Shown one piece after another: positions 1,290 through 51,907 of a DNA stretch of 64,000 nucleotides. Source of the DNA: Candidatus Aphodoplasma sp. Its GTDB lineage: Bacteria > Bacillota > Clostridia > UBA1381 > UMGS1253. The position numbers and the translations under genes were made by a program. The stretch is from contig JAZNVH010000010.1 in assembly GCA_045592745.1 (NCBI GenBank), positions 92,783-156,782 of the forward strand. The letters run 5' to 3'. Positions within the stretch are counted from its first letter, which is position 1, and every line of letters starts with the position of its first letter. The notes beneath the pieces were generated by a model. The model worked only from the letters and a program-made list of their open reading frames with translations. It had not been told where the DNA came from and did not search any database.

Positions 1290-2464
1290 TCACCCTTCCT
1301 TTCGGCCGCGTCTGCAAAACCAAGAAGCAGAGGCTCGGAAAAATGCTTTCCAATAAGCTGGACACCACCACTAACCATTGCAGGCACGCCAATAAGGTTT
1401 GCCAAAGAGGTGAACACGCTCTCATCAAACACCTTGCCAAAGGCTTCGTGAATATCGTACGCTTCATAAGCTGTTTTACTCATAGCAGGAGTCAAAATAG
1501 CATCGTAATTTTTCATAAGCTCTTCAAATTTTTCTGCTATTACACGGCGTACTTTTAATGATTTATTATAGCATTCTTCGTAACGGTTTTTGGAAAGAAC
1601 ATCAGAGCCATACAAAATCACTGATTTTGTCAAAAAGTTAAAGCCTTCTGTTCTTGAATTTACATATAACTCGTCAATGTCTTTGTATTCTTTGGCGCGA
1701 TGACCAAATTTAACACCGTCATAACGGGAAATATTATTGCACGTTTCTGCTGTCATAAGAATCTGCCATGCCACGTTAACAGCATCAAAAATATCAAATG
1801 AGATTTCTTCTACAACAACACCATTCTCGCGTAGTGCGCCAGCAAAAGCGTTTATGCGTTCTTTTGTCTGCTCATCTGCTTTTTCGACGAGCTCTTTTAC
1901 AATGGCGACCTTTTTGCCCGAAACATTTTCCAAGCTATAGTCATAGCTTTCGTTTCTGAGGCTCGTTCCGTCTTTTTCGTCGTGTCCTGCAATAATCTGC
2001 ATAATCTCTTTAACACCTGATGCATTTTTCGCATATACACCGACTTGCTCACCCGAAGCAGCACACGAAATTACACCATAGCGTGAAACCGTGCCATAGG
2101 TGGGTTTTAAAAAGTCGATGCCAGATAATGCGGCGCTGCGTCTTGTAGCGCCATTCATATCTACGCCAAGAGCGGCTTTTACATCGCCATCTGCAACCGC
2201 CTGTGCGGCTGCGCCTTTTAATGAGCCTTCCTGATTTTCGTAGTATGAAAATTCACCAACAAGGTCAAGACCAAACTCGCCAACATGTGTCTTTCCGGCA
2301 ACTTTATATCCTTTGCTTTCAAGACGTGTTACTGCCTCTGCGCTAAAAAGCGGCTTGAAGCCTTCAAGTATTTTAGAGCCTGCACAGCTTTGAGCGTCTT
2401 TTACTAAAATTGTATCATCAACTGCGATGTTACCATCGCCTAATTTCGTTTTATAATAATTCAT
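1286..2464 (-). CDS. gatA: GatA-like amidase-signature protein, truncated and lacking the catalytic triad
   Basis: Amidase-signature scaffold (LKPTYGTVSRYG, NISRYDGVKFGHR, SLANLIGVPA) between aspS::gatC and gatB. Likely start is ATG 2464 behind GAGGTG (track start GTG 2473). About 392 aa versus about 480 for typical GatA. Confidence 0.9.
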   Translation of the reverse strand: MNYYKTKLGDGNIAVDDTILVKDAQSCAGSKILEGFKPLFSAEAVTRLESKGYKVAGKTHVGEFGLDLVGEFSYYENQEGSLKGAAAQAVADGDVKAALGVDMNGATRRSAALSGIDFLKPTYGTVSRYGVISCAASGEQVGVYAKNASGVKEIMQIIAGHDEKDGTSLRNESYDYSLENVSGKKVAIVKELVEKADEQTKERINAFAGALRENGVVVEEISFDIFDAVNVAWQILMTAETCNNISRYDGVKFGHRAKEYKDIDELYVNSRTEGFNFLTKSVILYGSDVLSKNRYEECYNKSLKVRRVIAEKFEELMKNYDAILTPAMSKTAYEAYDIHEAFGKVFDESVFTSLANLIGVPAMVSGGVQLIGKHFSEPLLLGFADAAERKGE

Positions 2465-2474
2465 CCTGCACACC

Positions 2475-4553
2475 TCACTTTACAAGTCTTGGCACCTGCC
2501 AGCTGTCTTCACTGCGCTCGGGAGCACCTTCTAAGAGGCTCTCACGCGTGAACGGCTGATGGCGGACATCTTCGCGCAGTACATTTGTCATAGGCATAAC
2601 ATGTACCATGGGTTCAACATTTTCTGTATCTATCGTAGAAAGAATTTTTTCTTTTTCGCTCATAGCGGCAAAAATTTTCTGAACCTTATTTTCTTCTTCG
2701 CCTGAAAGGGCGATCTGGTTTAGCTGCTGTGCATTAGAAAATGTCGAGCGCTTGCTCATAGATGATTTACCTGTGTTTGATGGGCCTGATGCACGCTGCG
2801 CGAGTGCGTTTGTATTTCCCAAAAGGTGAACATCTTCAAGCTGTTGATTTGATACAAAGCTTGGCGCACCTAAAAGAAGGTCCTGAGCGTTGCCGTTTAG
2901 AGGGAATGCAATAACGTCTAAAATCTTTTCTTCATCGGTTAACAGCATTACCATTCTGTCGATACCGGGCGCCATACCTGCATGAGGCGGAGCACCGTAT
3001 TGGAATGCTGTATAAAGAGCATTAAAACGCTTTTTAAGCTCTTCCTCTGGATAACCTGCAATTTCAAATGCTTTTTTCATGATGTCTATATCATGGTTAC
3101 GAACAGCGCCCGATGCAAGCTCTATGCCGTTACCAACAAGGTCATACTGATATGCCAGAATTTCGGTAGGGTCTTTTGTAAGAAGAGCATCCATACCGCC
3201 CTGGGGCATAGAAAATGGGTTGTGTGTAAAGATTATTTCGCCTGTATCCTCGTCTTCTTCGTACATCGGGAAGTCTACAACGAAGCAGAACTCGAATGCA
3301 TCTTCGTTAATCAAATCAAGCTGTTCTTTTTTAGCAAGCCATGTGCGTATAAGTCCTGCTTTTTTCTCGGTATCATTCTTTTTATCATCACAGATAAAGA
3401 ACAGTGTTTCGCCTTCTTTTACACCTGTTAATTCAATTATTTCTTCTTTTTGTGCGTCACTTAAGAACTTGGCGATAGGACCTGCAAATATGCCATCTTT
3501 TAAAGTGATATATCCAAGACCGCCAAGACCAACCTCAAGAGATGTTGCATATTTTAAAGAATCCTCAAAGAATTTTTTTGATTTGCCCTGACAGTTTGCC
3601 ACGATTCCGCGCACGGGCTTACCCTTAAAAGCGGGGAAGTCAACGCCAGAAAAGAAATCTGTCAAATCACAGATGATAAGTGGATTTCGAAGGTCAGGCT
3701 TATCAGAGCCGTAATACATCATCGCATCGGCATATGTTATGCGGCGAAACGGCTTTGGTGTAACCTTTTTATCGGAAAATGTTTTAAATGTATCATAGAT
3801 TAAATCTTCGCAAACATCCAAAACTTCTTCTTGCGTAGCAAACGCCATTTCAAAGTCGAGCTGATAAAACTCACCGGGAGAACGATCAGCGCGGGCATCT
3901 TCGTCACGGAAGCACGGAGCAACCTGAAAATATCTGTCAAAGCCCGACACCATCAAAAGCTGTTTAAACTGCTGCGGTGCCTGCGGAAGTGCGTAAAATT
4001 TGCCCGGATGCTTACGGCTTGGTACCAAAAAGTCTCTGGCGCCTTCCGGAGAAGAAGCAGTCAAAATCGGAGTCTGCATATCCAAAAAGCCTTTTTCCTC
4101 CATTTTGTTTCTCAAATGGCGGATAATCTTTGAGCGTTTTACCAAATTATCATGGTTTTTTGGATTACGCAAATCAAGATAGCGGTATTTTAAACGAAGC
4201 TCATCCTTGCTCAGTCTTGAAGTGCGCACATCAAAAGGCAGATTATTAAGACTTTTGCCTAAAATTTCAAGAGTGTCTGCTACAAGTTCTACATTACCTG
4301 TATCAAGCTTGTAGTTTACGGTTTCTTCGTCACGCTTGCTTACGATACCTGTAACAGAAATAACTGTTTCGCGGTTTACATCCTTTACAAGCTTGTCATC
4401 ATGGATGACCACCTGTGTTACGCCTGTGTAATCACGAAGGTCGATAAAAATAACACCACCGTGGTCACGCACAACGTCAACCCAACCGGCAAGTGAAACA
4501 GTTTTGCCGATGTGCTCATCACGTATGTCATTACAATATAGGGTTCTATACAT
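2475..4553 (-). CDS. aspS: Aspartyl-tRNA synthetase (non-discriminating type) fused to a C-terminal GatC-like domain
   Basis: AspRS motifs RDHGGVIFIDLRD, LPQAPQQFKQLLM, CFRDEDARADR.PGEFYQLD, GAPPHAGMAPGIDR. After about residue 585 comes a Ser/Gly/Asn linker, then a GatC-like tail (IDTENVEPMVHV..TNVLREDV...LLEGAPERSEDSWQVPRLVK). Confidence 0.95.
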   Translation of the reverse strand: MYRTLYCNDIRDEHIGKTVSLAGWVDVVRDHGGVIFIDLRDYTGVTQVVIHDDKLVKDVNRETVISVTGIVSKRDEETVNYKLDTGNVELVADTLEILGKSLNNLPFDVRTSRLSKDELRLKYRYLDLRNPKNHDNLVKRSKIIRHLRNKMEEKGFLDMQTPILTASSPEGARDFLVPSRKHPGKFYALPQAPQQFKQLLMVSGFDRYFQVAPCFRDEDARADRSPGEFYQLDFEMAFATQEEVLDVCEDLIYDTFKTFSDKKVTPKPFRRITYADAMMYYGSDKPDLRNPLIICDLTDFFSGVDFPAFKGKPVRGIVANCQGKSKKFFEDSLKYATSLEVGLGGLGYITLKDGIFAGPIAKFLSDAQKEEIIELTGVKEGETLFFICDDKKNDTEKKAGLIRTWLAKKEQLDLINEDAFEFCFVVDFPMYEEDEDTGEIIFTHNPFSMPQGGMDALLTKDPTEILAYQYDLVGNGIELASGAVRNHDIDIMKKAFEIAGYPEEELKKRFNALYTAFQYGAPPHAGMAPGIDRMVMLLTDEEKILDVIAFPLNGNAQDLLLGAPSFVSNQQLEDVHLLGNTNALAQRASGPSNTGKSSMSKRSTFSNAQQLNQIALSGEEENKVQKIFAAMSEKEKILSTIDTENVEPMVHVMPMTNVLREDVRHQPFTRESLLEGAPERSEDSWQVPRLVK

Positions 4554-11549: not shown

Positions 11550-13391
11550 ATGATAGATAAAATTGACAAAATTTTAATGTCGGTACAAAAGCCCGTGCAG
11601 TATACGGGCGGAGAGCTTGGCATGGTAAAAAAAGATGCAGACAGCGTTGATATTCGCTTTGCATTTTGTTTTCCTGACAATTATGAAGTGGGTATGTCGC
11701 ATCTTGGTATGAAGATACTTTATCATCTTTTAAATGAGCGCAATGATACCTACTGTGAGCGTGTTTTTGCTCCGTGGCCAGATATGGAAGCAAAGATGCG
11801 CGAAAACGATATGAAGCTTTTTTCACTCGAAACTAAAACGAGTGTGTGCGATTTTGACATAGTAGGTTTTACACTTATGTATGAGCTTTGCTATTCAAAC
11901 GTTATAAATATGCTTGATTTGGCGGGAATAAAAATAAAAAGCAGCGATCGCGGTGAAGGTGAGCCGTTTGTATGTGCAGGCGGTGCGTGTGCGTATAATC
12001 CCGAACCGCTTGCCGACATGATAGACTTTTTTATCATGGGTGAGGGTGAAGAGGTTTTGCCCGAGGTTATGGACGCTTACAGTGAATGGAAAAAGAGTGG
12101 ACAAAAACGCGAAAAGTTTTTAGAATCTATATGCGAAATTGAGGGGATATACGTACCTGCATTTTATGATGTGACGTATAATGAAGATAAAACTATCGCA
12201 TCATTTGAGCCAAATCGCGCGTGTGCAAAAAAGAAAATAAAAAAGCGCATAATCCACGATTTTGATAACTCATATTTTCCAGAGCAGCTTGTTGTTCCGT
12301 ACGCAGAAACCGTTCACGACAGAGTGACACTTGAAATTTTCAGAGGATGTATACGCGGTTGCCGTTTTTGTCAGGCGGGATATGTGTATCGTCCCGTAAG
12401 AGAAAAAAATGCCAAAAAGCTTGTAGAGCTTGCAAAAAAGCTTGTATCGGCAACGGGGTATGAAGAAATTTCTCTTTGCTCTCTCAGTACAAGCGATTAC
12501 ACACAGCTTAGCGAGCTTACCGAAGGGCTTTTGGATGAAATCTGTAAAAAGAAGGTTAATTTATCACTTCCTTCACTTCGTATTGATAATTTTTCGTTAG
12601 ACCTTATGGAAAAGGTGCAGACTGTGCGAAAAAGCGGTATTACCTTTGCGCCCGAAGCGGGAAGTCAGCGCCTTCGTGATGTTATAAAAAAAGGCGTTAC
12701 CGAGCAGGATTTGCTTGATTCTGTTTCGCTTATATTCGGTGGCGGTTGGACAAATGTCAAGCTCTATTTTATGATAGGTCTTCCGACTGAAACGAGTGAG
12801 GATATTCTGGGAATTGGCGCGCTTTCGTCAAAGGTGCTTGACGAGTATTATAAGCTGCCAAAAGAAAGCCGACATGGTGCGCCACGTATAAGCGTAAGCG
12901 CATCAACCTTTGTTCCAAAGCCATTTACGCCTTTCCAATGGGAAAGTCAGGATAATATTGAAACTATATATGAAAAACAAGGTATAGCAAGAAGTTCGAT
13001 AAAATCAAAGCAGATAAAATTCAGTTGGCACGATGCCGAAACAAGCTTTCTTGAAGGCGTGTTTGCCCGAGGAGACAGAAGACTTTGTGATGTACTTATT
13101 GCGGCGCATAAAAATGGCTGTAAGTTTGATGGTTGGAATGAATATTTTGATTTTGAAGCATGGCAAAAATCGTTTGAAGAGTGCGGCGTTGATGCGACAT
13201 TTTATAATCAGCGCAAGCGCAGCTTTGACGAAATACTTCCATGGGACCATATTGATGTCGGCGTAAGTAAGACGTTTTTGGAAAAAGAGGCGCGTCTTGC
13301 ATACGAAGAAAAGCTTACTCCAAACTGCAGAGAACAGTGCACAGGCTGCGGTGCTGCATGTTTTAAAGGGGGTATATGCGTTGAAAGGTAA
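11550..13391 (+). CDS. TIGR03960-family B12-binding radical SAM protein
   Basis: FPDNYEVGMSHLG, CxxxCxxC (RGCIRGCRFCQ), FAPEAGSQRLR and C-terminal PNCR..C..CGA. Start ATG 11550 is inferred. Confidence 0.9.
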   Translation: MIDKIDKILMSVQKPVQYTGGELGMVKKDADSVDIRFAFCFPDNYEVGMSHLGMKILYHLLNERNDTYCERVFAPWPDMEAKMRENDMKLFSLETKTSVCDFDIVGFTLMYELCYSNVINMLDLAGIKIKSSDRGEGEPFVCAGGACAYNPEPLADMIDFFIMGEGEEVLPEVMDAYSEWKKSGQKREKFLESICEIEGIYVPAFYDVTYNEDKTIASFEPNRACAKKKIKKRIIHDFDNSYFPEQLVVPYAETVHDRVTLEIFRGCIRGCRFCQAGYVYRPVREKNAKKLVELAKKLVSATGYEEISLCSLSTSDYTQLSELTEGLLDEICKKKVNLSLPSLRIDNFSLDLMEKVQTVRKSGITFAPEAGSQRLRDVIKKGVTEQDLLDSVSLIFGGGWTNVKLYFMIGLPTETSEDILGIGALSSKVLDEYYKLPKESRHGAPRISVSASTFVPKPFTPFQWESQDNIETIYEKQGIARSSIKSKQIKFSWHDAETSFLEGVFARGDRRLCDVLIAAHKNGCKFDGWNEYFDFEAWQKSFEECGVDATFYNQRKRSFDEILPWDHIDVGVSKTFLEKEARLAYEEKLTPNCREQCTGCGAACFKGGICVER

Positions 13392-15191: not shown

Positions 15192-17822
15192 TTATTTCAA
15201 AGCTGCAATGCTTTCTTCAACCTTTTTAAGCATTTCGGCATATTTTTTGCCCTTAGCGGCCTCTGCTTCTACAACAGCGGCAGGCGCTTTGTCGGTAAAG
15301 CCTTTGTTTGAAAGCTTGCTTTCGACTCTTTTTATCTCACTAATAAGAGTTTGCTTTTCCTTTTCAAGACGCGTCAGCTCTTTTTCTTTGTCAACAAGCT
15401 CTTCCATAGGAAGATATATGCTTGCGCCTTCAACAACGATGCATACACTGCCTTCCGATATGCCGCCGTTGTCTTTTACAACGCTCACGCCCTGAGCGCT
15501 TGCAAGCTTTTCGAAAAATCCGATTCCGCTTGAAAATACGTCTGTAAGCTCTGTTACAATTATAAGACTGCACTTCTTTGAAGGCGGAACATTCATTTCG
15601 CTTCTTGTATTACGGATGCTCTTGATTGCCTCCATAATAAGTGACATATTTTTCTCATCGGCTGCAAAATTAAGCTTTTCATCATATTTTGGCCAGTCGC
15701 TTATCATAATGCTTTCGCCAACGTGTGGCAAATGTTGCCATATTTCTTCAGTGATAAAGGGCATAAACGGATGAAGTAGTTTCATTGTTTCTGACAAAAC
15801 GTATGTGAGTACATACTGAGCAGTTATACGCGACGGATTTTCAGTGTCAAACAGACGCGGTTTTACAAGTTCGATATACCAGTCGCAATAATCGTCCCAT
15901 ATAAAGTCGTAAATCTTTGAAAGTGCAACGCCAAGCTCGAATTTGTCAAGATTGTCGGTAACTTCTTTTACGACGTTATTAAACTTACTTATAATCCACT
16001 TATCTTCGAGTGCAAGCTCGCTCGCATCGGGAAGTTTGTTATCATTGATTTCAAGATTCATCAAAACAAAACGCGATGCGTTCCATATCTTATTTGCAAA
16101 GTTACGGCTTGCCTGTACCTTTTTATCTGAAAAACGCATATCGTTTCCTGGCGCATTACCTGTTATAAGTGTAAAACGAAGTGCGTCTGCACCATATTTT
16201 TCGATGATTTCGAGCGGGTCAATACCGTTTCCAAGCGATTTTGACATTTTGCGTCCCTGCTCATCACGAACAAGACCATGTATAAATACATGCTTAAACG
16301 GCTCACTCTTCATATGCTCTGCGCTTGAGAAAATCATTCTTGCAACCCAGAAGAATATGATATCATATCCCGTTACGAGTACTGATGTGGGGAAGAACTT
16401 TTCAAGCTCGGTTGTCTTATTTGGCCAGCCAAGTGTCGAAAACGGCCATAGTGCTGATGAAAACCATGTATCAAGAACGTCGGGGTCCTGCTTTACGCTG
16501 CCCCCGCACTTGGGACATACATCTACGGGTGTTTTTGAAACAACTGTTTCGCCGCACGCGTCGCAGTAATATGCGGGTATTCTGTGTCCCCACCAAAGCT
16601 GACGCGAAATGCACCAGTCGTGCACATTTTCCATCCAGTTTAAATATGTCTTTGTAAATCTTTCGGGAACAAACTGTGTTTTTCCTTCTGTTACGATTTT
16701 TATAGCCTCTTTTGCAAGCGGCTCCATTTTAACAAACCACTGCTTTGATGTGATAGGCTCAACTGTTGTGCCGCAACGATAGCACTGACCCACATTGTGT
16801 GAATGTGGCTCGATTTTTACAAGAAAACCACCTTCTTCAAGGTCAGCTACAATCTGTTTTCTTGCTTCGTAACGGTTAAGTCCTTCATATTTTCCACCAA
16901 AGGAGTTTATAGTTGCATCGTCGTTCATAACCTTTATTTGCTCAAGGTTATGACGAAGACCAACCTCAAAGTCATTCGGGTCATGCGCAGGTGTAATTTT
17001 AACTGCGCCTGTACCAAAATCTTTGTCAACGTATTCGTCGGCAATAATCGGTATCTCACGTCCAACAAGCGGAAGCACAAGCATCTTTCCAACAAGGTGA
17101 GTATATCTTTCGTCATCAGGATGAACTGCAACAGCAGTATCTCCCAAAAGTGTTTCAGGACGTGTTGTTGCGATTGTAAGATATTCGTCAGAATCTTTTA
17201 CATAATATCTTATGTGCCAGAAATTTCCTTCGTGCTCTTCATACTCAACCTCAGCGTCAGAAAGCGCCGTAGCACAGCTTGGACACCAGTTTATAATTCT
17301 GCTGCCCTGATATATAAGTCCTTTTTTATAAAGGTTTACAAATACCTCAAGAACGGCATCGGAGCATCCTTCGTCCATAGTAAAGCGCTCGCGGTCCCAG
17401 TCGCATGAACAACCGATTTTTTTAAGCTGGCTGATAATTCTGTCGCCGTATTGTTTTTTCCAGTCCCATACACGCTCCAAAAACGCCTCACGTCCAAGGT
17501 CGTAGCGGGTTTTGCCTTCTTCTTTTCGAAGAACTTCTTCAACCTTTATCTGTGTTGCGATACCTGCGTGGTCAGTGCCGGGAATCCAAAGAGCCTCAAA
17601 GCCTGACATACGCTTATAACGAATAAGGATATCCTGAAGTGTTTCGTCAAGAGCATGTCCCATGTGAAGCTGACCGGTAACGTTCGGGGGAGGAATTACA
17701 ATTGTGAAAGGCTCTTTGTCGCTCTTTTCATCTGCATGAAAAAAGCCATTTTCCGTCCAGAATTTGTATAATCTGTCCTCAAACTGGGATGGTTCATAAG
17801 TTTTAGCAATATTGTCATTCAT
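15192..17822 (-). CDS. valS: Valine--tRNA ligase
   Basis: [38 protein letters not shown] and KMSKS motifs; C-terminal coiled coil. Confidence 0.98.
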
Positions 17823-29978: not shown

Positions 29979-30007
29979 TTGACAAAAAAAAAGTAATATG
30001 ATATATT
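29979..30007 (+). promoter_or_regulatory. SigA-type promoter for the Leu T-box operon
   Basis: TTGACA-17 nt-TATATT with TG extension. Confidence 0.7.
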
Positions 30008-30021
30008 TACTCCATTATCAC

Positions 30022-30299
30022 ATAAACGCAGTGATGCGGAATAGTAGGCAAAATACTTTCGCCAAAAGAGAGATGCCGGTTGGTGCAAGGCATTGGGAAA
30101 GATTTGCCGAACTCACCGCGGAGCGGCTGCCGTGAAATGTTTGGAGAGTAGGGGCAGACGGGAACTCCCGTAACAGAGTAAAGATGTGTTGGCATCTTGA
30201 GGGCATCCTTTGTGGATGAAGAAGAGTGGTACCGCGGAAGCAAAAAAGGATTTTACGCTTTCGTCTCTTTGAATAAACGAAGAGACGAAAGCTTTTTTT
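30022..30299 (+). promoter_or_regulatory. Leucine T-box riboswitch (specifier CUC)
   Basis: Stem I with AGUA/GAA loop E, AGAGAG bulge, GGTGCAAG loop and GAA-CTC-A at 30109-30115. T-box AGAGTGGTACCGCG at 30223-30236. Terminator GCTTTCGTCTCT/AGAGACGAAAGC plus T7 (30257-30299). The UGGU bulge matches the A73 discriminator of tRNA-Leu. Confidence 0.95.
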
Positions 30300-30353
30300 G
30301 TAAATTGAAAAAGCTTTGGGAAATGAGCTTTGAAAGGGAAGGGGTTTTATCCA

Positions 30354-31742
30354 ATGAGAAAAATCAACGTATCGGACATTACATTAAAAAAACTGGCACA
30401 AACAAGAGAGGTTGCACTGCTATTTCGTGAAAAGACAGCGATTGCTGCGTGCGCAGACGCTCTCGGCGTAGATGCTATTGAACTTGCGGCAATTAAAAAT
30501 TTGCGTGAAGATACTATCGTTTATAAAACGATTGCAAAAAATATTCAAAAAAGTATTGTTGCAATTCCGGTTGGTTTTTCTTTTGATGACGTGGCAAATG
30601 CGTGGGAATGTGTAAAGGAAGCCGCAAAACCGAGACTGCAGGTAGAAGTGCCCACATCAACAGTTCAGATGGAGTATATGTATCATCTTAAAGCAGACAA
30701 AATGATAGCAAAAATCGCCGAGCTTGTTACAGAAGCGAAAAAGCTTTGTGATGATGTAGAGCTTGTTGCAACTGATGCTACACGTGCTGATGAAGAGTTT
30801 TTGATTGAAGCTGCAAAGACAGCCGAACAAAATGGCGCAAAGATTATTACAATCTGTGACGATGCGGGTGTGGCTTTGCCTGAGGAAATTGCAGAGCTTG
30901 TTTCTAAAGTAAAGCAGGCTGTAAATGCAGATGTTTATGTGCAGGTATCAGACAGTATCGGTATGGCAGTATCGGCGGCGGTATCTGCAATCGGAGCGGG
31001 CGCAGATGGACTAAAATGTGCAATGGCAGGAGAAGATTCGCTTTCTATGGGCGCTTTGGCAAAAATGGTTTCAGCACGCGGAGATGCGATTGGCGCTTCG
31101 GTAGCTTTGGAGAATACAAAAATTCACGCAAGTATCGAGGATATGCTTTCTAAAATCAATCATGCAGGATATGAAAGTGCAGATGACGTTAGCGAGAAAA
31201 AGAAGATTTTGCTTGATGAGGATAGTACACTTTCTGATGTGGCATATGCGGCAAATGTGCTTGGTTATGATTTGTCCGACGAGGATAATGGAAAGGTTTA
31301 TAAGGCACTTATGCAGGTTTGTGAGAAGAAAGGCTCTGTCGGAGTAAAAGAATTTGAAGCACTTATTGCAAGCAGTGCAATGCAGGCACCGTCAACATAT
31401 CATTTTGAAAGCTATTCGACAAGTTGTGGTAATTTAACAAGTGCAATGTCACAGGTAACGCTAAGATGCGGTGATGAAATTCTTTGCGGTGTAAGCACGG
31501 GCGACGGTCCGATTGATTCGGTATTTCGTGCAATAGAGCAAAGCATAGGATATCATTATGAGCTTGACGATTTCCAGATTCAGTCGGTAACAGATGGCAA
31601 GGAAGCGCTTGGCTCTGCCTTGGTAAAGCTTCGCGTAGGCGGCAAGCTCTATTCAGGTAACGGCAGCTCTACTGATATTGTTGCAGCAAGTATAAGAGCA
31701 TACATAAATGCGCTTAACAAGATTGTGTTTGAGGAGGCGTAA
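30354..31742 (+). CDS. LeuA (2-isopropylmalate synthase)-like pseudoenzyme with intact C-terminal regulatory domain
   Basis: Colinear with LeuA (AAKPRLQV, LCDDVEL..TDATR, GDGPIDSVF.AI, SGNGSSTDIVAASIRAYINALNK), but LRDGEQ reads LKKLAQ and HCHND reads QVSDS. Start ATG 30354 behind GAAGGGG. Confidence 0.88.
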   Translation: MRKINVSDITLKKLAQTREVALLFREKTAIAACADALGVDAIELAAIKNLREDTIVYKTIAKNIQKSIVAIPVGFSFDDVANAWECVKEAAKPRLQVEVPTSTVQMEYMYHLKADKMIAKIAELVTEAKKLCDDVELVATDATRADEEFLIEAAKTAEQNGAKIITICDDAGVALPEEIAELVSKVKQAVNADVYVQVSDSIGMAVSAAVSAIGAGADGLKCAMAGEDSLSMGALAKMVSARGDAIGASVALENTKIHASIEDMLSKINHAGYESADDVSEKKKILLDEDSTLSDVAYAANVLGYDLSDEDNGKVYKALMQVCEKKGSVGVKEFEALIASSAMQAPSTYHFESYSTSCGNLTSAMSQVTLRCGDEILCGVSTGDGPIDSVFRAIEQSIGYHYELDDFQIQSVTDGKEALGSALVKLRVGGKLYSGNGSSTDIVAASIRAYINALNKIVFEEA

Positions 31743-31744
31743 GG

Positions 31745-34204
31745 ATGAAACTGACCTTTTCTACAAAAAACGTAAACAGGGCATCGTTTTTTGATACCTG
31801 CCGTTATGCATACGATTACGGATATGCAGGTTTTGAAATTTATGATGCAATTAAAGAGAGAAAACAACACTATGACAGCATTCTTCGAAGTGAACGCACA
31901 GCAGACTCAAAAAGAAAGCTTTTTAACCGTGGACTTAACGTTTCTGCATTGGTGTATCCGTATCCGATAGAAAGTAGCGAAGCGACACCTGAATCTGTTG
32001 TAAAATATGTTGATATGGCGACAAATGCGGGAATTGAGCGCGTTATTTTGCGTATCGAGGAAAAGACTTCAAACGATGTGCTTTATGAAAAACTCAGTGA
32101 GGCTGTCAAAAAAGCCGGAAAGGCTGATGTTCAGATATTGTTTGAAACATCGGGCTATCTTGCAAAAACTGAGAATGTAATTGATATTATAAACTTTTTT
32201 TCATCTGCGGCAATAGGTGTTTCGTGGAATACGCGTGAAACGTATTTTAAAGCGGGCGAGAGTGCAGACACAACCATTAAAACACTTGGCGCGTATATAA
32301 AATATGTGCGTCTTGGTGATATGAAAGATGGCAAAAGCGTCTTAATCGGTGAGGGAGAGCTTCCTGTTACAAATGTTATTAATGCGCTTTCTTCACTTAA
32401 TTTTGACGGATATATTTGCGTGGCGTGGAATGAAGAAATTCAGGATGCTGACATTGTACTTACGCATTTCACAAATTATATTGCTGGACTTTCTCGAAAG
32501 AAAAAAGAAAAAGACGGTGCATATTATAATCGCTCAAAGACGGGTACATTTGTATGGAAAAAATACGATGTTATTGATGCAACTTTTTCCGATGTGCTTG
32601 ATACGATGGTTGAAAAGTACCCTGACCAGTATGCGTTTAAATATACAACGCTTGATTACACAAGAACGTATTCGCAGTTTCGCCGTGATGTAGATGAATG
32701 TGCGGCGGCACTTATATCGCTTGGCGTAAAGGCGGGCGACCAGGTTGCTATATGGGCGACGAATGTGCCGGCGTGGTTTATTACCTTTTGGGCAACGACA
32801 AAAATCGGCGCAGTACTCGTTACAGTTAATACCGCATATAAAATTCATGAGATTGAATATCTTTTAAAGCAGTCGGATACGCATACGCTTGTTATGATTG
32901 AGGATTGTAAGGATATTAATTATATAGAAATTATCGAGGAGCTTTGTCCCGAACTTAAAAGCATAAATCCAGGAGAGCCGCTTTATTCAAAAAATCTTCC
33001 GTTCCTGCGAAATGTAGTTACAGTCGGTTTTTCAATGGATGGATGTCTTACATGGGAACAGATGCTTGAGCGTTCTGCACTTGTGCCTCAGCAGGAGGTG
33101 CGTCGCAGAGCCTCGCTTGTAAAGCCCGACGATGTTTGTAATATGCAATATACATCGGGCACTACGGGATTTCCAAAGGGCGTAATGCTTACGCACAGAA
33201 ACATTGTCAACAACGGAAAAACCATTGGTGACAGAATGGATTTGTCAACAGCAGACCGTATGATGATTCAGGTGCCGATGTTCCATTGTTTTGGTATGGT
33301 GCTTTCCATGACATCAATGATGACACATGGCGGTACACTTTGTCCAATGCCATATTTTTCGCCAAAGTCATCACTTGCATGTGTAAACGATGAACACATA
33401 ACCTGCTTTAATGGTGTACCGACTATGTTTATAGCAATGTTTAACCATGCCGATTTTGCAAAGACGGACTTTTCGTATATGCGTACGGGAATTATGGCGG
33501 GAGCAAACTGTCCGGCAGATTTGATGCGTCGTGCGGCAGATGAGATGAATATGCGTGAGATTATTTCTGTATATGGTCAGACCGAGGCTTCGCCCGGATG
33601 CACAATGGGTGAGGTAAACGAAGATCTTGACCACAGAGTTGAAACTGTTGGAAGTGCATTTCCCGGTGTTGAATGTAAGATTATTGACCCTGAAACAGGC
33701 GAGGAACTACCCGATGGTGAGAGCGGCGAATTTGTTGCGCGTGGCTTTAACATTATGAAGGGCTATTATAAAATGCCTGAAGCAACTGCACAGACAATTG
33801 ACGCAGACGGATGGCTTCATTCGGGAGATATTTGCTGTAGAACAAGCGATGGATATTATAAGGTTACAGGACGTCTTAAAGATATGATTATTCGTGGAGG
33901 CGAAAATCTTTACCCGCGTGAGATAGAGGAGTTTTATCTTACACACCCGAAGGTGCGCGACGTGCAGGTAGTAGGTGTGCCTGACGAAAAGTACGGCGAA
34001 GAGTGCTGTGCGTGGATTATTCTTCATAAAGGTGAAGAGTCTGATGAAAACGAGATGCGCGAGTATGGTAATGCTTCTATTGCACGCCACAAAGTGCCAA
34101 AGTACTTTGTATTTGTTAAAGAATTTCCAATGAACGCTGCAGGCAAAATTCTAAAATATAAGATGCGTGATGAGTCAGTGGAGATTTTAGGATTAAAAAA
34201 GTAA
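31745..34204 (+). CDS. Fusion: degenerate xylose-isomerase-like TIM barrel plus AMP-forming acyl-CoA synthetase
   Basis: The N-terminal ~255 aa follow the sugar-phosphate isomerase/epimerase pattern (YAGFEI, LIGEGELP, FDGYI). The C-terminal part has intact ANL motifs YTSGTTGFPKG, YGQTE, WLHSGD, GRLKDMIIRGGEN and AGKILK. Confidence 0.9.
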   Translation: MKLTFSTKNVNRASFFDTCRYAYDYGYAGFEIYDAIKERKQHYDSILRSERTADSKRKLFNRGLNVSALVYPYPIESSEATPESVVKYVDMATNAGIERVILRIEEKTSNDVLYEKLSEAVKKAGKADVQILFETSGYLAKTENVIDIINFFSSAAIGVSWNTRETYFKAGESADTTIKTLGAYIKYVRLGDMKDGKSVLIGEGELPVTNVINALSSLNFDGYICVAWNEEIQDADIVLTHFTNYIAGLSRKKKEKDGAYYNRSKTGTFVWKKYDVIDATFSDVLDTMVEKYPDQYAFKYTTLDYTRTYSQFRRDVDECAAALISLGVKAGDQVAIWATNVPAWFITFWATTKIGAVLVTVNTAYKIHEIEYLLKQSDTHTLVMIEDCKDINYIEIIEELCPELKSINPGEPLYSKNLPFLRNVVTVGFSMDGCLTWEQMLERSALVPQQEVRRRASLVKPDDVCNMQYTSGTTGFPKGVMLTHRNIVNNGKTIGDRMDLSTADRMMIQVPMFHCFGMVLSMTSMMTHGGTLCPMPYFSPKSSLACVNDEHITCFNGVPTMFIAMFNHADFAKTDFSYMRTGIMAGANCPADLMRRAADEMNMREIISVYGQTEASPGCTMGEVNEDLDHRVETVGSAFPGVECKIIDPETGEELPDGESGEFVARGFNIMKGYYKMPEATAQTIDADGWLHSGDICCRTSDGYYKVTGRLKDMIIRGGENLYPREIEEFYLTHPKVRDVQVVGVPDEKYGEECCAWIILHKGEESDENEMREYGNASIARHKVPKYFVFVKEFPMNAAGKILKYKMRDESVEILGLKK

Positions 34205-34213
34205 ATTAAGCAT

Positions 34214-34247
34214 AAAAAAACTGTTCACTTTTGTGAACAGGTTTTTT
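34214..34247. terminator. Bidirectional intrinsic terminator (acyl-CoA ligase / rnj)
   Basis: A7-CTGTTCAC-TTTT-GTGAACAG-G-T6. Confidence 0.85.
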
Positions 34248-34258
34248 ATTTTTACATA

Positions 34259-35941
34259 TCAAACTTCCATAATAACGGGAAGTATCATTGGTGAGCGTTT
34301 TGTTTTTTCATACATATAGTCGCTTAAAGTGTTTTTCATTGCAAGTTTTAGTGCAGTCCAGTCGGTTGCGCCCTTTAAAACGCACTCATCAAGTGCTTCT
34401 TTTGTAACCTGACGCGCCTCTTCCATTAGTTCCTCGGCTTCTCTTACGTATACAAAGCCGCGAGATATAATGTCAGGACCTGCGACGATTTCGCCATTGT
34501 CTGCACTGATTGAAACGACGCAAACAATGAGTCCGTCGTTTGAAAGGTGTTTTCTGTCGCGAAGTACAATGTTTCCGACATCACCTACGCCGAGACCGTC
34601 AACCAAAAGCTTGCCCGATGGTACGGTAGTAGTCATTTTTGCACTTTCATTATCAAGTTCAAGCACACGGCCGTTTTCCATGATGAATACATTTTTTTCT
34701 TCAACGCCCATAAGAGTGCCAAGCTGTGAATGACGGTGCAAATGACGGTATTCGCCGTGCACAGGCATGAAATATTTCGGCTTTGTAAGCGCAAGCATAA
34801 GCTTTAATTCTTCCTGACATGCGTGTCCCGAAACGTGAACTTCGGCAAGGGATTCGTATATAACCTCTGTTCCTTGCTTGAAAAGCTCGTTTATAACACG
34901 CGAAATTGTTTTTTCATTACCGGGAATTGGGCTTGCAGATACTATGATAAGGTCATTTTGTGTAAGCTCTACTTTGCGGTGGTCAGAATACGCCATTCTG
35001 AAAAGCGCACTCATGGCCTCGCCTTGCGAGCCTGTTGTTACTATGACAAGCTGATTATCATTATAGCGATTTATATCGTCGATACTGATGAGCGTTTTTT
35101 CAGGGATTGTCATATAACCAAGAAGTATCGCAACTTCGATAATATTTTCCATGCTTCTTCCTGAAACGGCAACTTTTCTTCCGTATTTTGCAGCGGTATT
35201 TATAATTTGCTGAACTCTGTGAACATTTGAAGCAAATGTGGCTACAATAATACGTTTTTCGCAGTTTTTAAAGATTTCATCAAAGGTTGAGCCGACGCTT
35301 CGCTCACTCATGGTGTAGCCTGCGCGTTCAACGTTTGTCGAATCGCTCATCAAAAGAAGTACTCCTTCGCGCCCAAGCTCGCCAAGTCTTGTAAGGTCAA
35401 TCATTTCTCCATCTATTGGGGTCGAATCAATCTTAAAGTCGCCCGTATGAACAACTGTACCGACAGGGGTCTTTATTGCAAGAGCAACAGAGCCTGCAAT
35501 TGAATGGTTTGAGTGTATAAATTCAACAGAAAACGCGCGACCAATTTTTATACTGTCTCCCGGTTTTACACGGTTTAATTTAACTGTTGATAATATGTTG
35601 TGCTCTTTAAGTTTGGTTTCGATAAGTCCTATTGTAAGCTTTGTTGCATACACGGGCACATTGACTTTCTTTAAAAAGAAGGGTAGGGCACCGATGTGAT
35701 CTTCGTGTCCGTGTGTGATTACTACGCCACGTACCCTTTCAATATTTTTTTCAAGATACGACGTATCAGGTATGACAAGATCAATGCCGGGCATATCATC
35801 GTCCGGAAAAGCAATTCCGCAGTCAACAACAAAGATGTCGTCGCCGTACTCGAATACCGTCATGTTTTTGCCAATTTCGTTCAGGCCACCTAACGGTATA
35901 ATTTTAAGTTTTTGTTTTTTTGGCACTAAAAAATCCTCCAT
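34259..35941 (-). CDS. rnj: Ribonuclease J
   Basis: PLGGLNEIGKN, THGHEDHIG, HTGDFKID, TGSQGE and HVSGHA. Confidence 0.97.
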   Translation of the reverse strand: MEDFLVPKKQKLKIIPLGGLNEIGKNMTVFEYGDDIFVVDCGIAFPDDDMPGIDLVIPDTSYLEKNIERVRGVVITHGHEDHIGALPFFLKKVNVPVYATKLTIGLIETKLKEHNILSTVKLNRVKPGDSIKIGRAFSVEFIHSNHSIAGSVALAIKTPVGTVVHTGDFKIDSTPIDGEMIDLTRLGELGREGVLLLMSDSTNVERAGYTMSERSVGSTFDEIFKNCEKRIIVATFASNVHRVQQIINTAAKYGRKVAVSGRSMENIIEVAILLGYMTIPEKTLISIDDINRYNDNQLVIVTTGSQGEAMSALFRMAYSDHRKVELTQNDLIIVSASPIPGNEKTISRVINELFKQGTEVIYESLAEVHVSGHACQEELKLMLALTKPKYFMPVHGEYRHLHRHSQLGTLMGVEEKNVFIMENGRVLELDNESAKMTTTVPSGKLLVDGLGVGDVGNIVLRDRKHLSNDGLIVCVVSISADNGEIVAGPDIISRGFVYVREAEELMEEARQVTKEALDECVLKGATDWTALKLAMKNTLSDYMYEKTKRSPMILPVIMEV

Positions 35942-36170: not shown

Positions 36171-36989
36171 TTATCGAAATTGTGAGCAAAGCTTGTCATA
36201 GCAAGCCTTCACTTGTGGTATTTTATAGCCCTTTTTATCTGTTATTTCAAAAGGTATAGGTCCTGTATATCCTGATTTTAAAAGAAGTGAAAAAATCGTT
36301 TTCCAGTCATTTATGCCCTCATAAGGAAGCCAGTGTCTTTCGTCAGTGCGATCATAATCACTTACGTGTATAGTAATGATTCTGTCGCCAAAAGCTTTTA
36401 TAAAAGCCTCATTTGTATCTGTAAGAAGATGGTTTGTATCAAAGCATATACGGAGTCTTAAATCGGACGAAACAATTTTTGCCATACTGTCAATATTATT
36501 GCCAAGACATGTGCGGGGCAAATTCTCCACCGCGATTTGTGCACCGAATTTTTCTGCTTCATCTGCAAGCTTTCTCAAAGATGCTTTTGCATTTTCCGTT
36601 TGAATAAATCTGTTTTCTGGCAAAATCGGCTCAAACGAAGGATGAACTACAAATATTTTTATATCTGTGTTCTGGCACACAAAACGAATCATATCAAGCT
36701 GACGCTCAATTGCATTTTGACGAATATTTTTGTCAAGCGAAGCAATATCATACGGATCCCAAAAAGAAAGATGTGCTGACCAAAGCTTGATACCTGTTTT
36801 TTTGCACGAATCAATAAGGCGTAGCCAGTAGTCCTGTATTACTTTATTTTCCATGCCGGGACATGCACCGCCAATTGAGAGTTCTAACATTTCAATTCCG
36901 TTATCTTTGCACTCTTTTAGCACCTCATAATCGGGTGATGGTAAAAATGCGCTTGAAAGTGCAAGCGGATTATTTGAAAGCTTTATCAT
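36171..36989 (-). CDS. Sugar-phosphate isomerase/epimerase (xylose isomerase-like TIM barrel)
   Basis: Intact metal ligands ENLP, FDTNH, HVSD and FE. Confidence 0.85.
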   Translation of the reverse strand: MIKLSNNPLALSSAFLPSPDYEVLKECKDNGIEMLELSIGGACPGMENKVIQDYWLRLIDSCKKTGIKLWSAHLSFWDPYDIASLDKNIRQNAIERQLDMIRFVCQNTDIKIFVVHPSFEPILPENRFIQTENAKASLRKLADEAEKFGAQIAVENLPRTCLGNNIDSMAKIVSSDLRLRICFDTNHLLTDTNEAFIKAFGDRIITIHVSDYDRTDERHWLPYEGINDWKTIFSLLLKSGYTGPIPFEITDKKGYKIPQVKACYDKLCSQFR

Positions 36990-49576: not shown

Positions 49577-51907
49577 TTACACGCCAATAGTATTTTTAAC
49601 GTTTTCTTCGCTAAATGATGCATCTGTAAATTCATTCATAAATGCCTCAAATGAGCCTGATTCATTTTTATCGGAGCAGCGAACAACCCATGCGATTGTA
49701 TCACCATAAGCACGATAATCGCAGTCCATTACTGCGTCATTATTGTTAAGCTCGAGTGTTTTTGAACACCATACGCCCATATAAGAGTTGTTAACGCGGG
49801 CAAACATAAAGCCATCACGCTTTATTTCTTCATCCATTGCAAATGAAGGCCAGTAAATATGGGTAAGCTTTGTCGGATGCTCGTCGGGGATATTATAGTA
49901 GCAGTAAAGCGTATTGTCATCTTGCTTTAGTGCAGGAAATACGCCATTTCCATACCAATAATCAGGACGTATACCGCCAAAGTCTTTTTCTGTGCCCGGA
50001 TGATTTACGAATGTATAACAGCGGTTTGAAAGAGCCGCATACCAAAGATGCTGCTGATAGCCATATTTGCCGGGAACAAACAAAGACGTTCCGTGAAACC
50101 ACTCGTTCATGATCTTTGTCTTATAATATTCTGTATCTGTATATTTTTCTTCAGGGAGTGGCGTGCGTCTTGGAGAAGCAACCGATGTAAGCATATAGTT
50201 TTTCGTTTTTTTTGTAGTAATGCTTGCACGTCCCGAATCAAATGTAACATTGGCATTATTGCGCATAAGTTCCGTCAAATCATCAGGCATTTTATATGAG
50301 CTGTAATAGAAGTATATAAGCCAACCACTGTATGCTTGGGCGCAGTTTTCGTCGAGCAGATACAAAAGACTTTGCAGTCCTGACTCGTATGGAGTGAGCG
50401 AGCTTCTGTATATTCTTCCCATAGGAGCCATATGTATACCGTCAAAGCATTGAAGTGCTGTTTCACGAAGAATTCGGTCAAGAGCGTTTTTTGCGCGGGA
50501 CTTGATAACTTCGTTTGTTGAAAAATCATAAAGGACAAGAAGCGGAGCAGTTGTAACAAGCAGATATCCGCCTGCCAAAAATTCTTCAAAGCCCTCGTGC
50601 TCAATTACATCAAACCACTCGTTTATACGGGCTATGCCTTTTTTATACTGGTCTATGCCGCGTTTGCCTGAATGACGGAAAAACTCCTCGGGCCATATAC
50701 TTCCTGCGAGCATCTGGCAAACAAAGAATGTGAGCGCGTGATTTTCGCTCCAAAAGCACATTGCATCTGCACCTTCCTCGTCCATCCAGTATCTAAAGTC
50801 AAGAGCGGCATCGTGTATCTTCTTTTTGTATTCATCACTTATTGGTAAAAGCTTGTATATGTAAAGAAGACTCATAAGTGCAAAGTCAGAACAATCTCTA
50901 CAAGTGCGTACAAAGTCAAGAGGCATATCAAAATGCGCATAATCTTTTTCGCAGATAGACTGTTTTATGTAGTAACTGGCAAGAAATTTGAAAGTATCTA
51001 AATAAGAGTGAGCTTTTGTGTCAGCTATATTTTTCAATATTGAATCTGCTTTATCTTTCTTTGATTCAAATTTATTAAACACAAGCTTTTCATTCTGAAG
51101 AATATCAAATCGGCGCATAAACTTTTGTGCGCATACTTCAAACGATACTTGGATATTTCTTTCTCTGTTTATATCATAGGTGTTGCCTTCGCTCCATACG
51201 CTCTCATTTTCTCCAAGCTTAACTGTTACAGGTAATGGCGGTTGTGTTTTTGAAATAAGCTTTGCATCATCACAACGCAAATCACAAAGCCAGTTTTCAG
51301 CGTCTTTAAGCTTTGCAAGAGTATCTTCCTTGACAGGAAGAGTTACACATATACCGTCTGTATCAAAAAGCTGAAGTGAGAACATATTTCTGGTGTCGCG
51401 TACACCAAAGTTCTGGAGGCATACAAATATATCATTAACGCCTTTCTTTAGGTCTAATGTTATGTCAAGATAGTTTATCGGTTTATATACGGGGTCTTTA
51501 ATGTTTGCACAGTGGACACCGTTTAGCCACATATCAACAGTACAGTATGACCAGATTCGAGCGCGAACAGTTTTTGCTTTGTCACTTACAAGCTGAGTTA
51601 GTGCATGAATATTAACACTCGTAAGAGTGAAGTAGAAGGTTGAGAAATCTATGTATGTATTACGGTTTTTTGCATAAAATTTCCACACCGCACCAAGTGA
51701 GCTTTCTTCGCCGAGAGTGCCCCATGCGGGTACTTTTTCCATAGGCTTTGCGAAAATTTTTCGCATATCAGCCTCGAATTTTAGCTGATTTTTATCTGTA
51801 TGGGGTGCTACAAAAGGCTCAGTAACAGCCTCAGTTGTAAGATAGTTTAGAACATATCCCTCTTTTGAAAGTGAAAAACATACTTTTGAATCAGTCAACA
51901 TAAACAC
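49577..51907 (-). CDS. 776-aa cytoplasmic protein of unknown function, possibly carbohydrate lyase-like
   Basis: Long intact ORF with no signal peptide. Beta-rich N-terminus, helical core with FRYWMDE/FWSENH and a beta-rich C-terminus (YGYQQHLW). The fold assignment is inference. Confidence 0.6.
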   Translation of the reverse strand: MFMLTDSKVCFSLSKEGYVLNYLTTEAVTEPFVAPHTDKNQLKFEADMRKIFAKPMEKVPAWGTLGEESSLGAVWKFYAKNRNTYIDFSTFYFTLTSVNIHALTQLVSDKAKTVRARIWSYCTVDMWLNGVHCANIKDPVYKPINYLDITLDLKKGVNDIFVCLQNFGVRDTRNMFSLQLFDTDGICVTLPVKEDTLAKLKDAENWLCDLRCDDAKLISKTQPPLPVTVKLGENESVWSEGNTYDINRERNIQVSFEVCAQKFMRRFDILQNEKLVFNKFESKKDKADSILKNIADTKAHSYLDTFKFLASYYIKQSICEKDYAHFDMPLDFVRTCRDCSDFALMSLLYIYKLLPISDEYKKKIHDAALDFRYWMDEEGADAMCFWSENHALTFFVCQMLAGSIWPEEFFRHSGKRGIDQYKKGIARINEWFDVIEHEGFEEFLAGGYLLVTTAPLLVLYDFSTNEVIKSRAKNALDRILRETALQCFDGIHMAPMGRIYRSSLTPYESGLQSLLYLLDENCAQAYSGWLIYFYYSSYKMPDDLTELMRNNANVTFDSGRASITTKKTKNYMLTSVASPRRTPLPEEKYTDTEYYKTKIMNEWFHGTSLFVPGKYGYQQHLWYAALSNRCYTFVNHPGTEKDFGGIRPDYWYGNGVFPALKQDDNTLYCYYNIPDEHPTKLTHIYWPSFAMDEEIKRDGFMFARVNNSYMGVWCSKTLELNNNDAVMDCDYRAYGDTIAWVVRCSDKNESGSFEAFMNEFTDASFSEENVKNTIGV

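Follow-up and report, generated by a model that had tools for sequence, protein, structure and literature searches.

Branched-chain volatile fatty acids are classical growth factors of fibre-degrading rumen bacteria and a feed supplement for cattle, and isovalerate is abundant in gut and rumen. The route by which rumen bacteria use these acids was described by Allison (1962, 1966) and co-workers (to 1971): according to the part of PMC7356843 that cites this work, isovalerate, 2-methylbutyrate and isobutyrate first undergo activation, a reductive carboxylation then yields the 2-oxo acids, and these are transaminated, the carboxylation of isovalerate leading to leucine. That work was physiological and enzymological, whereas here genes are proposed for the same chemistry, from isovalerate over activated isovalerate and 2-ketoisocaproate to leucine. 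These genes lie in a stretch of 64,000 nucleotides of Candidatus Aphodoplasma sp. (Clostridia; GenBank assembly GCA_045592745.1, contig JAZNVH010000010.1, positions 92,783 to 156,782 of the forward strand), referred to as the window, whose own positions are used below. Between 29979 and 34247 a leucine T-box leader precedes two open reading frames (ORFs): ORF1, for a protein related to 2-isopropylmalate synthase (LeuA) that has lost the catalytic residues (pseudo-LeuA), and ORF2, for a TIM barrel fused to an AMP-forming acyl-CoA ligase (TIM-ligase). The operon very probably supplies leucine, and it probably represents the leucine branch of an isoacid salvage system in which isovalerate would be converted to leucine, with the entry step gated by the T-box.

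T-boxes induce the genes behind them when the cognate tRNA is uncharged. The leader described here is like those of Firmicutes amino-acid operons (ilv-leu of Bacillus; leuA in Geobacter) in its architecture, its Leu specifier, its terminator and antiterminator logic and its control of the supply of the cognate amino acid (PMC2494555). What differs are the targets, which in the usual regulons are tRNA synthetases, de novo pathways or transporters and here are an acyl-CoA ligase and a dead LeuA paralogue; neither an acyl-CoA ligase nor an oxidoreductase is among the targets listed in the T-box regulon survey (PMC2494555). Compared to the solved LeuAs (3EWB, 3RMJ and 1SR9/3FIG), ORF1 has in common the TIM-barrel fold, the LeuA_dimer domain and the GDGP and STD motifs of the effector site, but it has other residues in place of all the metal ligands and catalytic residues, lacks the catalytic linker subdomain and scores far under every equivalog cut-off.

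Two further systems are close in concept. HisZ, a catalytically dead paralogue of histidyl-tRNA synthetase, is described in the relevant part of PMC9734150 as the histidine-sensing regulatory subunit of the ATP phosphoribosyltransferase HisG(S). ORF1 would share with HisZ, as far as that source describes it, the concept of a pseudoenzyme which has kept the ancestral binding site for the end product and is genetically tied to the enzyme of pathway entry. The two belong to unrelated protein families, so that the likeness would be one of working; lost catalysis, retained site motifs and an obligate genetic linkage to the ligase can all be recognised for ORF1 at the sequence level. The second system is MbcS of S. 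aureus, which is an AMP-forming ligase like that of ORF2; it scavenges branched short acids, activates 2-methylbutyrate and isobutyrate, is poor on isovalerate and serves lipid synthesis (PMC10026030). It has no TIM, pseudo-LeuA or helix-turn-helix (HTH)-cupin module, and no T-box has been described for it. Its nearest relatives in the loci studied here are ligases under Ile and Val T-boxes, whereas the ORF2 ligase is only about 25% identical to MbcS-like enzymes.

The T-box leader (30022-30271, plus strand; Rfam RF00230) is composed of Stem I with a K-turn and the specifier loop, Stem III and the antiterminator. It scores 131.5 bits (gathering score 93; E 5.7e-29) over the full model (1-219/219) and can be aligned to 32 orthologous leaders. 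In the Rfam alignment the specifier codon is CTC (Leu; 30112-30114) in the context GAA-CUC-A (30109-30115), with a purine after the codon. The T-box core UGGUACCGCG (30227-30236) carries the UGGU bulge, for pairing with the 3' ACCA end of the tRNA, the U of the bulge matching the discriminator base A. An intrinsic terminator follows (30257-30299), with a hairpin at 30257-30292 (15-bp stem, 7 G-C pairs) and a T-run to 30299; according to the Rfam alignment, the 5' arm of the hairpin doubles as the 3' strand of the antiterminator, and the two structures are mutually exclusive. Upstream, 15 nt 5' of the T-box start, is a sigma-70-type promoter-like site (29979-30007, plus strand), which is a consensus match only (TTGACA, 17-nt spacer, TATATT, with TG 5' of the -10; 11/12 consensus matches).

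ORF1 (30354-31742, plus strand; stop TAA 31740-31742) likely starts at ATG 30354 after GGAAGGGG, which gives a protein of 462 amino acids (aa), the length of its orthologues, while the program-made ORF begins at TTG 30330 instead. The ribosome-binding site of ORF2 (GAGGAGG, 31731-31737) is placed within the last codons of ORF1, which suggests translational coupling to ORF2, whose ATG is at 31745 (31745-34204, plus strand; 819 aa). The operon is closed by a bidirectional intrinsic terminator (34221-34247, hairpin 34221-34240) in common with the convergent RNase J gene (34259-35941, minus strand). The Leu (CUC) T-box, the two tightly coupled genes and the closing terminator of the initial annotation were thus all found where it had placed them. 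It had also noted the absence of leuBCD, and this holds for the whole window, in which Pfam detected no leuBCD, ilv, oxidoreductase or aminotransferase genes.

For a wider view of the gene pair, a profile of diverse pseudo-LeuAs was scanned against one genome per GTDB species, which gave at least 596 confirmed relatives; the locus counts in this work refer to the best 80 of these at least 596, with 39-85% identity in pseudo-LeuA. Nearly all of the 80 loci are from metagenome-assembled genomes (MAGs) of gut and rumen, mainly Acutalibacteraceae, Oscillospiraceae, Christensenellaceae, Lachnospiraceae, Ruminococcus and Faecousia, with a small number assigned by binning to Coriobacteriia, Synergistaceae or Bacteroidota. 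Co-occurrence of the two genes under Leu T-boxes in other genomes, which had been fixed beforehand as one of the points on which the reading should stand or fall, was found: the TIM-ligase is directly 3' of pseudo-LeuA in 78 loci (the remaining two being cut by the contig edge), and a T-box is directly 5' of the pair in 57 according to a motif-plus-register scan checked against Rfam alignments. Six loci with a variant core were independently confirmed as T-boxes by Rfam. In all 57 the specifier is CUC or, more rarely, CUG; in the column of 33 aligned leaders it is CTC with the exception of CTG in L042, L076 and L077, all of them Leu codons. As the arrangement recurs in dozens of species-level genomes and its specifier is a Leu codon each time, chance is excluded. 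Pseudo-LeuA and the TIM-ligase are separated by -4 to +10 nt in the majority of 63 loci.

Conservation is unequal along the operon. Identity across the loci is 67-95% for the ligase, 39-85% for pseudo-LeuA and 27-80% for the TIM domain, and 273 of 544 columns are conserved at 95% or more in the ligase compared to 28 of 270 in the TIM domain; pseudo-LeuA and the TIM domain diverge two to three times faster than the ligase. Among the outlying loci, one binned as Bacteroidaceae (L071) carries the Bacteroidetes FopS small RNA on its contig, for which reason the assignment is credible. In this locus (L071:4369-9884) an intact CimA/LeuA-type synthase, with DTTLRDGEQ, HAHND, GLGERAGN and the linker subdomain, ends exactly at the start of pseudo-LeuA, which is followed by the TIM-ligase and PFOR, with no T-box.

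The genes found around the pair in the related loci, identified by clustering all ORFs of the 80 loci and annotating the recurrent families, are those which carry the assignment to leucine synthesis. A 2-oxoacid:ferredoxin oxidoreductase is present in 21 loci, either as VOR, in which alpha, beta and gamma are separate subunits and alpha passes the VorB model NF005507 (556 bits, cut-off 399), or as a single PFOR protein of 1170 aa (TIGR02176, 1651 bits). The aminotransferase IlvE (NF009897, 478 bits, cut-off 307) is present in 11. These genes are often directly up- or downstream of the pair in the same orientation. In addition, about 31 loci encode ligases of about 760 aa in which an N-terminal XRE-type HTH and a Cupin_2 domain are fused to an MbcS-like AMP-forming ligase (for example L004:9908-12465 and 12729-13380; L019:191-5434, minus; L042:369-5562, minus). 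Each of them is under its own T-box; an Ile specifier (AUC) is found in 31 loci and a Val specifier (GUA or GUC) in 10, codons which are backed by Rfam alignments (97-113 bits for the Ile leaders; 89.4 bits, E 2.8e-20, for one Val leader). Their best NCBIfam model is MbcS (441-443 bits, under the cut-off of 850), and they are about 25% identical to the ORF2 ligase. The combination of a DNA-binding domain with an adenylating enzyme recalls the BirA-type enzyme/repressors.

Of the 44 loci with a length of 11 kb or more, 38 have at least one of VOR, PFOR, IlvE and the Ile/Val ligases. The following gene orders are typical: Val-ligase, P-loop protein, VOR-alpha, -beta and -gamma, IlvE, T-box(Leu), pseudo-LeuA, TIM-ligase and amidohydrolase; the pair followed by IlvE, the P-loop protein and VOR; the pair followed by PFOR; and a divergent order in which the Leu unit is encoded on the strand opposite to the Ile and Val ligase units. 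The P-loop protein is CbiA/ParA-like (NUBPL-type), has about 220 aa and lies between the Val-ligase and VOR (L020:570-1232 and 12 other loci); it may be a Fe-S cluster delivery factor for the oxidoreductase. The amidohydrolase is an Amidohydro_2 protein of about 270 aa found right after the ligase in 30 of the 80 loci (e.g. L041:8203-9015), with no NCBIfam match and no obvious role in the pathway. Pseudo-LeuA occurs only alongside the TIM-bearing ligases, while the Ile/Val ligases come without TIM and pseudo-LeuA and have the HTH-cupin part instead.

ORF1 matches the HMGL-like TIM barrel (PF00682, 113.6 bits) and LeuA_dimer (PF08502, 100 bits) families and stays far under the curated LeuA cut-offs (NF002086, 255 against 532 bits; TIGR00973, 233 against 599). 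In alignment with 3EWB and 3RMJ the motif DTTLRDGEQ reads SDITLKKLAQ, HCHDDLG reads QVSDSIG and GLGERAGN reads AGED--S, so that the metal ligands and substrate-binding residues of LeuA (D, R, E and Q of DTTLRDGEQ, HxH of HxHxDxG, and GxGERxGN) are absent. The protein is about 40 residues shorter than LeuA because the linker segment with the motif HxSGIHQDG is deleted, and no HCS_D2 match was obtained. The same loss of catalytic motifs, HxH included, was seen in eight of eight diverse family members inspected, which bears out the name pseudo-LeuA under which the gene was first described. The barrel is nevertheless predicted to retain the fold: an AlphaFold2 model with a predicted local distance difference test (pLDDT) score of about 90 superposes on the N-domain of L. 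monocytogenes LeuA (3EWB) with a TM-score of 0.91 and a root-mean-square deviation of 1.9 Å, a modelled match that extends to 3RMJ, and the LeuA scaffold motifs PxSxVQMEY, DATR and CDxAG are still present.

The best conserved part of pseudo-LeuA is the C-terminal domain, in which 64% of the columns are invariant among 24 orthologues of ORF1 compared to 35% in the barrel. GDGP(I/V)DA, TEG(R/K)EA(L/M)G and G-x-S-T-D-I of this domain are near-invariant across the whole family. A profile of the domain matches the regulatory domains of L. interrogans citramalate synthase (3F6G, E 1.5e-8) and of M. tuberculosis LeuA (1SR9/3FIG); a PDB search with the domain as a single sequence gave chance matches only. 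In the M. tuberculosis enzyme leucine is bound at the dimer interface with its carboxylate held between the N-termini of two helices (PMC11057210), and in ORF1 the invariant GDGP and STD motifs are at the start of two predicted helices in the positions of these carboxylate-holding helices. Judged from these comparisons, ORF1 is a LeuA-fold protein without LeuA catalysis and not a LeuA, and its most constrained part is the predicted amino-acid binding site inherited from LeuA.

Searched exhaustively, 1.84 billion representatives yielded about 120 clusters (50% identity) of pseudo-LeuAs of 455-475 aa, 30-50% identical to ORF1, with true LeuAs (at least 500 aa) surfacing only under about 200 bits. 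That ORF1 is not decaying follows from this family-wide conservation, concentrated as it is in the effector-binding domain. Three LeuA-like proteins of 497-516 aa (P0365, P0380 and P0385) keep some of the catalytic motifs (e.g. HCHDD, GIGERSGN) and have degenerate linker motifs or a first motif DSTLCEGER; from their sequences they may be intermediate forms that link LeuA to the pseudo-LeuA family. In public databases the relatives of ORF1 are named "hypothetical protein" (NCBI), [quoted passage not shown] or, wrongly, "2-isopropylmalate synthase", the last label being found in JGI/IMG on pseudo-LeuA members (clusters of P0262 and P0337).

The C-terminal part of ORF2 (32570-34204, plus strand) is an AMP-forming acyl-CoA ligase of the ANL superfamily (Pfam AMP-binding, 318 bits; AMP-binding_C, 62 bits; residues 288-801). 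All ANL motifs are present: A3 TSGTTGFPKG, A4 FHCFG, A5 YGQTE, A7 SGD, A8 GRLKDMIIRGGENL and the A10 lysine (PMNAAGK). The best NCBIfam model is PRK12583, a generic fatty-acid CoA ligase subfamily (678 bits, under the cut-off of 832); no equivalog cut-off is reached, and the nearest solved structures are fatty-acyl and feruloyl-CoA synthetases. B. subtilis YngI, encoded in a catabolic operon for leucine/isovalerate, may belong to the PRK12583 clade, but the proposal made here does not draw on it. In acetyl-CoA synthetases a Trp before QTE closes the pocket. The Gly found at this place in A5 of ORF2 predicts only a pocket larger than acetate.

The N-terminal part of ORF2 (31745-32560, plus strand) is a xylose-isomerase-like TIM barrel (AP_endonuc_2, PF01261, 51 bits, cut-off 31.1; residues 20-230). 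Its metal-ligand positions, which we take from knowledge of the family and the family-internal alignment, are degenerate in the window (E134, N162, E165, Y187, R189 and A227, with D192 kept; column analysis of 63 fusions), whereas about 25 loci of distant clades keep the canonical site (E134, D162, H165, H187, H189, D192 and E227 in ORF2 numbering). The corresponding motifs are WDxxH, HVHxxD and SLEW in the distant clades (within L033-L080) and WNxxG/E, YVRxxD and CAAW in the clade of the window (L001-L031; window 32144-32425), which looks like the stepwise loss of a catalytic site inside one orthologous family. The initial annotation had called the barrel dead and the ligase the only intact catalytic domain; both hold for this locus and the first for its lineage, but the dead barrel does not extend to the distant members. 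An AlphaFold2 model of the TIM domain (40 close homologues) reached a pLDDT of 55. The three-domain architecture of ORF2 is shared by more than 120 clusters (90% identity), all from MAGs of Oscillospiraceae, Ruminococcaceae and other Clostridia and named only "AMP-binding protein".

The following mechanism can be proposed. By analogy with the known working of the T-box family, we infer that uncharged tRNA-Leu(GAG) would pair with the CUC specifier and the UGGU bulge and stabilise the antiterminator, and RNA polymerase would then read into both genes. The ligase would convert isovalerate (3-methylbutyrate) to isovaleryl-CoA, with ATP going to AMP and PPi, a substrate suggested by the gene context; a VOR- or PFOR-type oxidoreductase would reductively carboxylate isovaleryl-CoA to 2-ketoisocaproate, and IlvE would transaminate this to leucine. 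AMP-forming ligases drive the formation of acyl-CoA. Since they run in this direction and since the T-box induces on starvation, the operon is to be placed in synthesis and not in breakdown; a catabolic reading, from leucine to isovalerate for ATP, was rejected on the grounds that AMP-forming ligases conserve no energy that way and that induction occurs on starvation.

The presence of one ligase per branched-chain amino acid supports the assignment of isovalerate. The Ile/Val ligases are MbcS-like and MbcS is poor on isovalerate, so that the precursors of Ile and Val would be covered by MbcS-type enzymes and isovalerate left without one, and a distinct ligase on the Leu branch fits. By their predicted functions the three T-box-gated ligases, VOR or PFOR and IlvE are the gene set expected for the classical rumen route; acid-activating enzyme, oxidoreductase and aminotransferase are encoded together in related loci, not in the window. 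It had been suggested at the outset that under leucine shortage the ligase feeds isovalerate, or a branched acid related to it, into the synthesis of leucine, and these clusters support this view. On this evidence isovalerate, or a branched short acid close to it, is the likely substrate of the ORF2 ligase, with reductive carboxylation as the next step.

More tentatively, pseudo-LeuA could be, in line with the initial annotation, a leucine-sensing regulatory subunit, a role which appears quite possible from its sequence. Such a sensor acting via the TIM domain is suggested because the effector site is kept, because pseudo-LeuA is linked only to TIM-bearing ligases, because a cupin, likewise a module that binds small molecules, is in the equivalent position of the Ile/Val ligases and because the divergence of ORF1 tracks that of the TIM domain. 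Most likely ORF1 would then form a complex with the TIM domain of ORF2 and shut the ligase down as free leucine rises, an allosteric control which would provide, in a manner like HisZ and HisG, a fast feedback on top of the slower transcriptional control by the T-box.

Several observations weigh against this model. The sequence and family of the ligase by themselves name no substrate. No VOR, IlvE or Ile/Val ligase is encoded within the 64-kb window. Among sequencing runs the region was found in DNA metagenomes and in no RNA run. The regulatory domain of ORF1 has a pLDDT below 50 in the AlphaFold2 monomer model, and the tracking of the TIM domain by ORF1 (partial r 0.45 with the ligase controlled, compared to 0.04 for ORF1 against the ligase with TIM controlled) is a weak mirror-tree statistic which uses non-independent pairs. 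Given its intact metal site, the TIM domain may have, or may have had, a catalytic job in the distant clades that the model leaves unexplained. Finally, no T-box was found at about 20 of the 80 loci, the Bacteroidota ones among them. Because of these loci the gene pair is, as far as sequence conservation tells, a functional unit in its own right, with the T-box as a regulatory layer where that mechanism exists.

The product of the ligase could also be destined for the membrane, the enzyme mainly supplying isovaleryl-CoA as primer for iso-branched fatty acids and being induced when leucine, the usual source of the primer, is scarce. In classical work on ruminococcus, label from isovalerate reportedly appeared in both leucine and lipids. 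Isovaleryl-CoA would be suitable for either product, and MbcS is a precedent for the scavenging of branched short acids into lipids (PMC10026030). However, a T-box reports the charging of tRNA-Leu, and with it the demand of protein synthesis and not the state of the membrane; the conserved neighbours IlvE and the oxidoreductases lead to an amino acid, no fab or lipid gene turned up among the annotated neighbours, and the partner ORF1 carries what is by homology a leucine-binding domain, all of which makes a main role in lipid priming quite unlikely. A related question is whether the ligase acts on another leucine-related acid (isocaproate, 2-hydroxyisocaproate or a longer branched acid) or on a broad short- to medium-chain range and not specifically on isovalerate. 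The nearest curated models and solved structures, being medium-/long-chain and aromatic acyl-CoA ligases, would allow this, as would the Gly of A5, which tells only that the substrate is larger than acetate. Against it, with VOR/PFOR and IlvE co-located, isovaleryl-CoA is the one acyl-CoA from which a single reductive carboxylation leads to 2-ketoisocaproate, the logic of three ligases and three T-boxes gives isovalerate to the Leu branch, and the extreme conservation of the ligase suggests one fixed substrate; we therefore hold another or a broader substrate to be very unlikely.

A different role can likewise be considered for the two companion domains, in that pseudo-LeuA and TIM together may be not regulators but a new enzyme or a channelling scaffold, for example binding 2-ketoisocaproate or CoA esters and handing isovaleryl-CoA to the oxidoreductase. 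The retained scaffold motifs and confidently modelled fold of the barrel are in line with this, as are the canonical TIM metal site of the distant loci and the Amidohydro_2 gene after the ligase in 30 loci. On the other hand, every member examined has lost the three metal ligands of LeuA together with all of its acid/base residues, the TIM metal site must be dispensable since the whole clade of the window lost it and yet kept operon and T-box, both domains evolve much faster than the ligase, and within pseudo-LeuA it is the effector-binding domain and not the barrel that is best conserved. An enzymatic or channelling role is thus unlikely. As for ORF1 being a decaying leuA pseudogene beside an unrelated ligase, with the T-box a relic of a former leu operon, the lost catalytic residues and the name "hypothetical protein" given by NCBI to the orthologues could suggest it, but the intact frame of conserved length, the many clusters and species-level genomes in which it recurs, the strong purifying constraint on the C-terminal domain and the translational coupling of ORF1 to ORF2 almost everywhere effectively refute this explanation, to which we give hardly any weight.

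The remainder of the window is unrelated to the operon. Upstream are genes for rhamnose and uronate utilisation, and downstream are RNase J, a TIM-barrel gene, PolC and housekeeping genes. The TIM-barrel gene, a stand-alone AP_endonuc_2 gene (36171-36989, minus strand; Pfam 110 bits) between RNase J and PolC, was considered as a paralogue of the TIM domain of ORF2 and rejected, there being no detectable sequence similarity. The Leu T-box is the sole Rfam match in the 64 kb, and no tRNA gene was found in them; valyl-tRNA synthetase (15192-17822, minus strand) and aspartyl-tRNA synthetase (2475-4553, minus strand) have no T-box at the Rfam gathering score. The aspartyl-tRNA synthetase is apparently fused to GatC, with a C-terminal GatC domain at aa 616-686 and a GatA-like amidase gene directly after it (1286-4553, minus strand). 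No Pfam match at E of 1e-5 or below was obtained for an ORF of 776 aa (49577-51907, minus strand) that is flanked by rpsB and a P-type ATPase.

Beyond the leucine branch, we put forward with considerable reserve a three-branch isoacid salvage regulon, in which each branched-chain amino acid would have a T-box-gated ligase with its own sensor, pseudo-LeuA on TIM for Leu and HTH-cupin for Ile and Val, with VOR/PFOR and IlvE in common. It could be the genetic basis of the need, observed some sixty years ago, of ruminococci and their relatives for branched-chain volatile fatty acids, with pseudo-LeuA as a new HisZ-like class of pseudoenzyme regulator, and would be carried by gut and rumen Clostridia and by some Bacteroidota and Coriobacteriia. 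Nothing is new about the RNA element, the ligase superfamily or the chemistry of the pathway; what appears to be new is the assignment of the genes, the pseudoenzyme as a partner and the regulon with its three branches. In the full-text literature, taken as that outside subscription-only papers, we found nothing on T-box-controlled acyl-CoA ligases, on a dead LeuA paralogue or on the genes or regulation of isoacid activation, in agreement with the view of the initial annotation that the arrangement is undescribed.

If the proposal is true, the gene pair would be a marker, in at least 596 species-level genomes, for organisms of gut and rumen which use isovalerate, 2-methylbutyrate and isobutyrate for leucine, isoleucine and valine. 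The T-box regulon would be widened to acid-activating enzymes, and pseudo-LeuA would be a new pseudoenzyme regulator, a LeuA reduced to its sensor. For databases the "2-isopropylmalate synthase" labels matter, as automated pathway reconstruction may credit MAGs with a LeuA activity that pseudo-LeuA cannot have. For the organisms themselves, the use of isoacids would be regulated in two feedback layers, one reading the charging of tRNA and the other the free amino acid.

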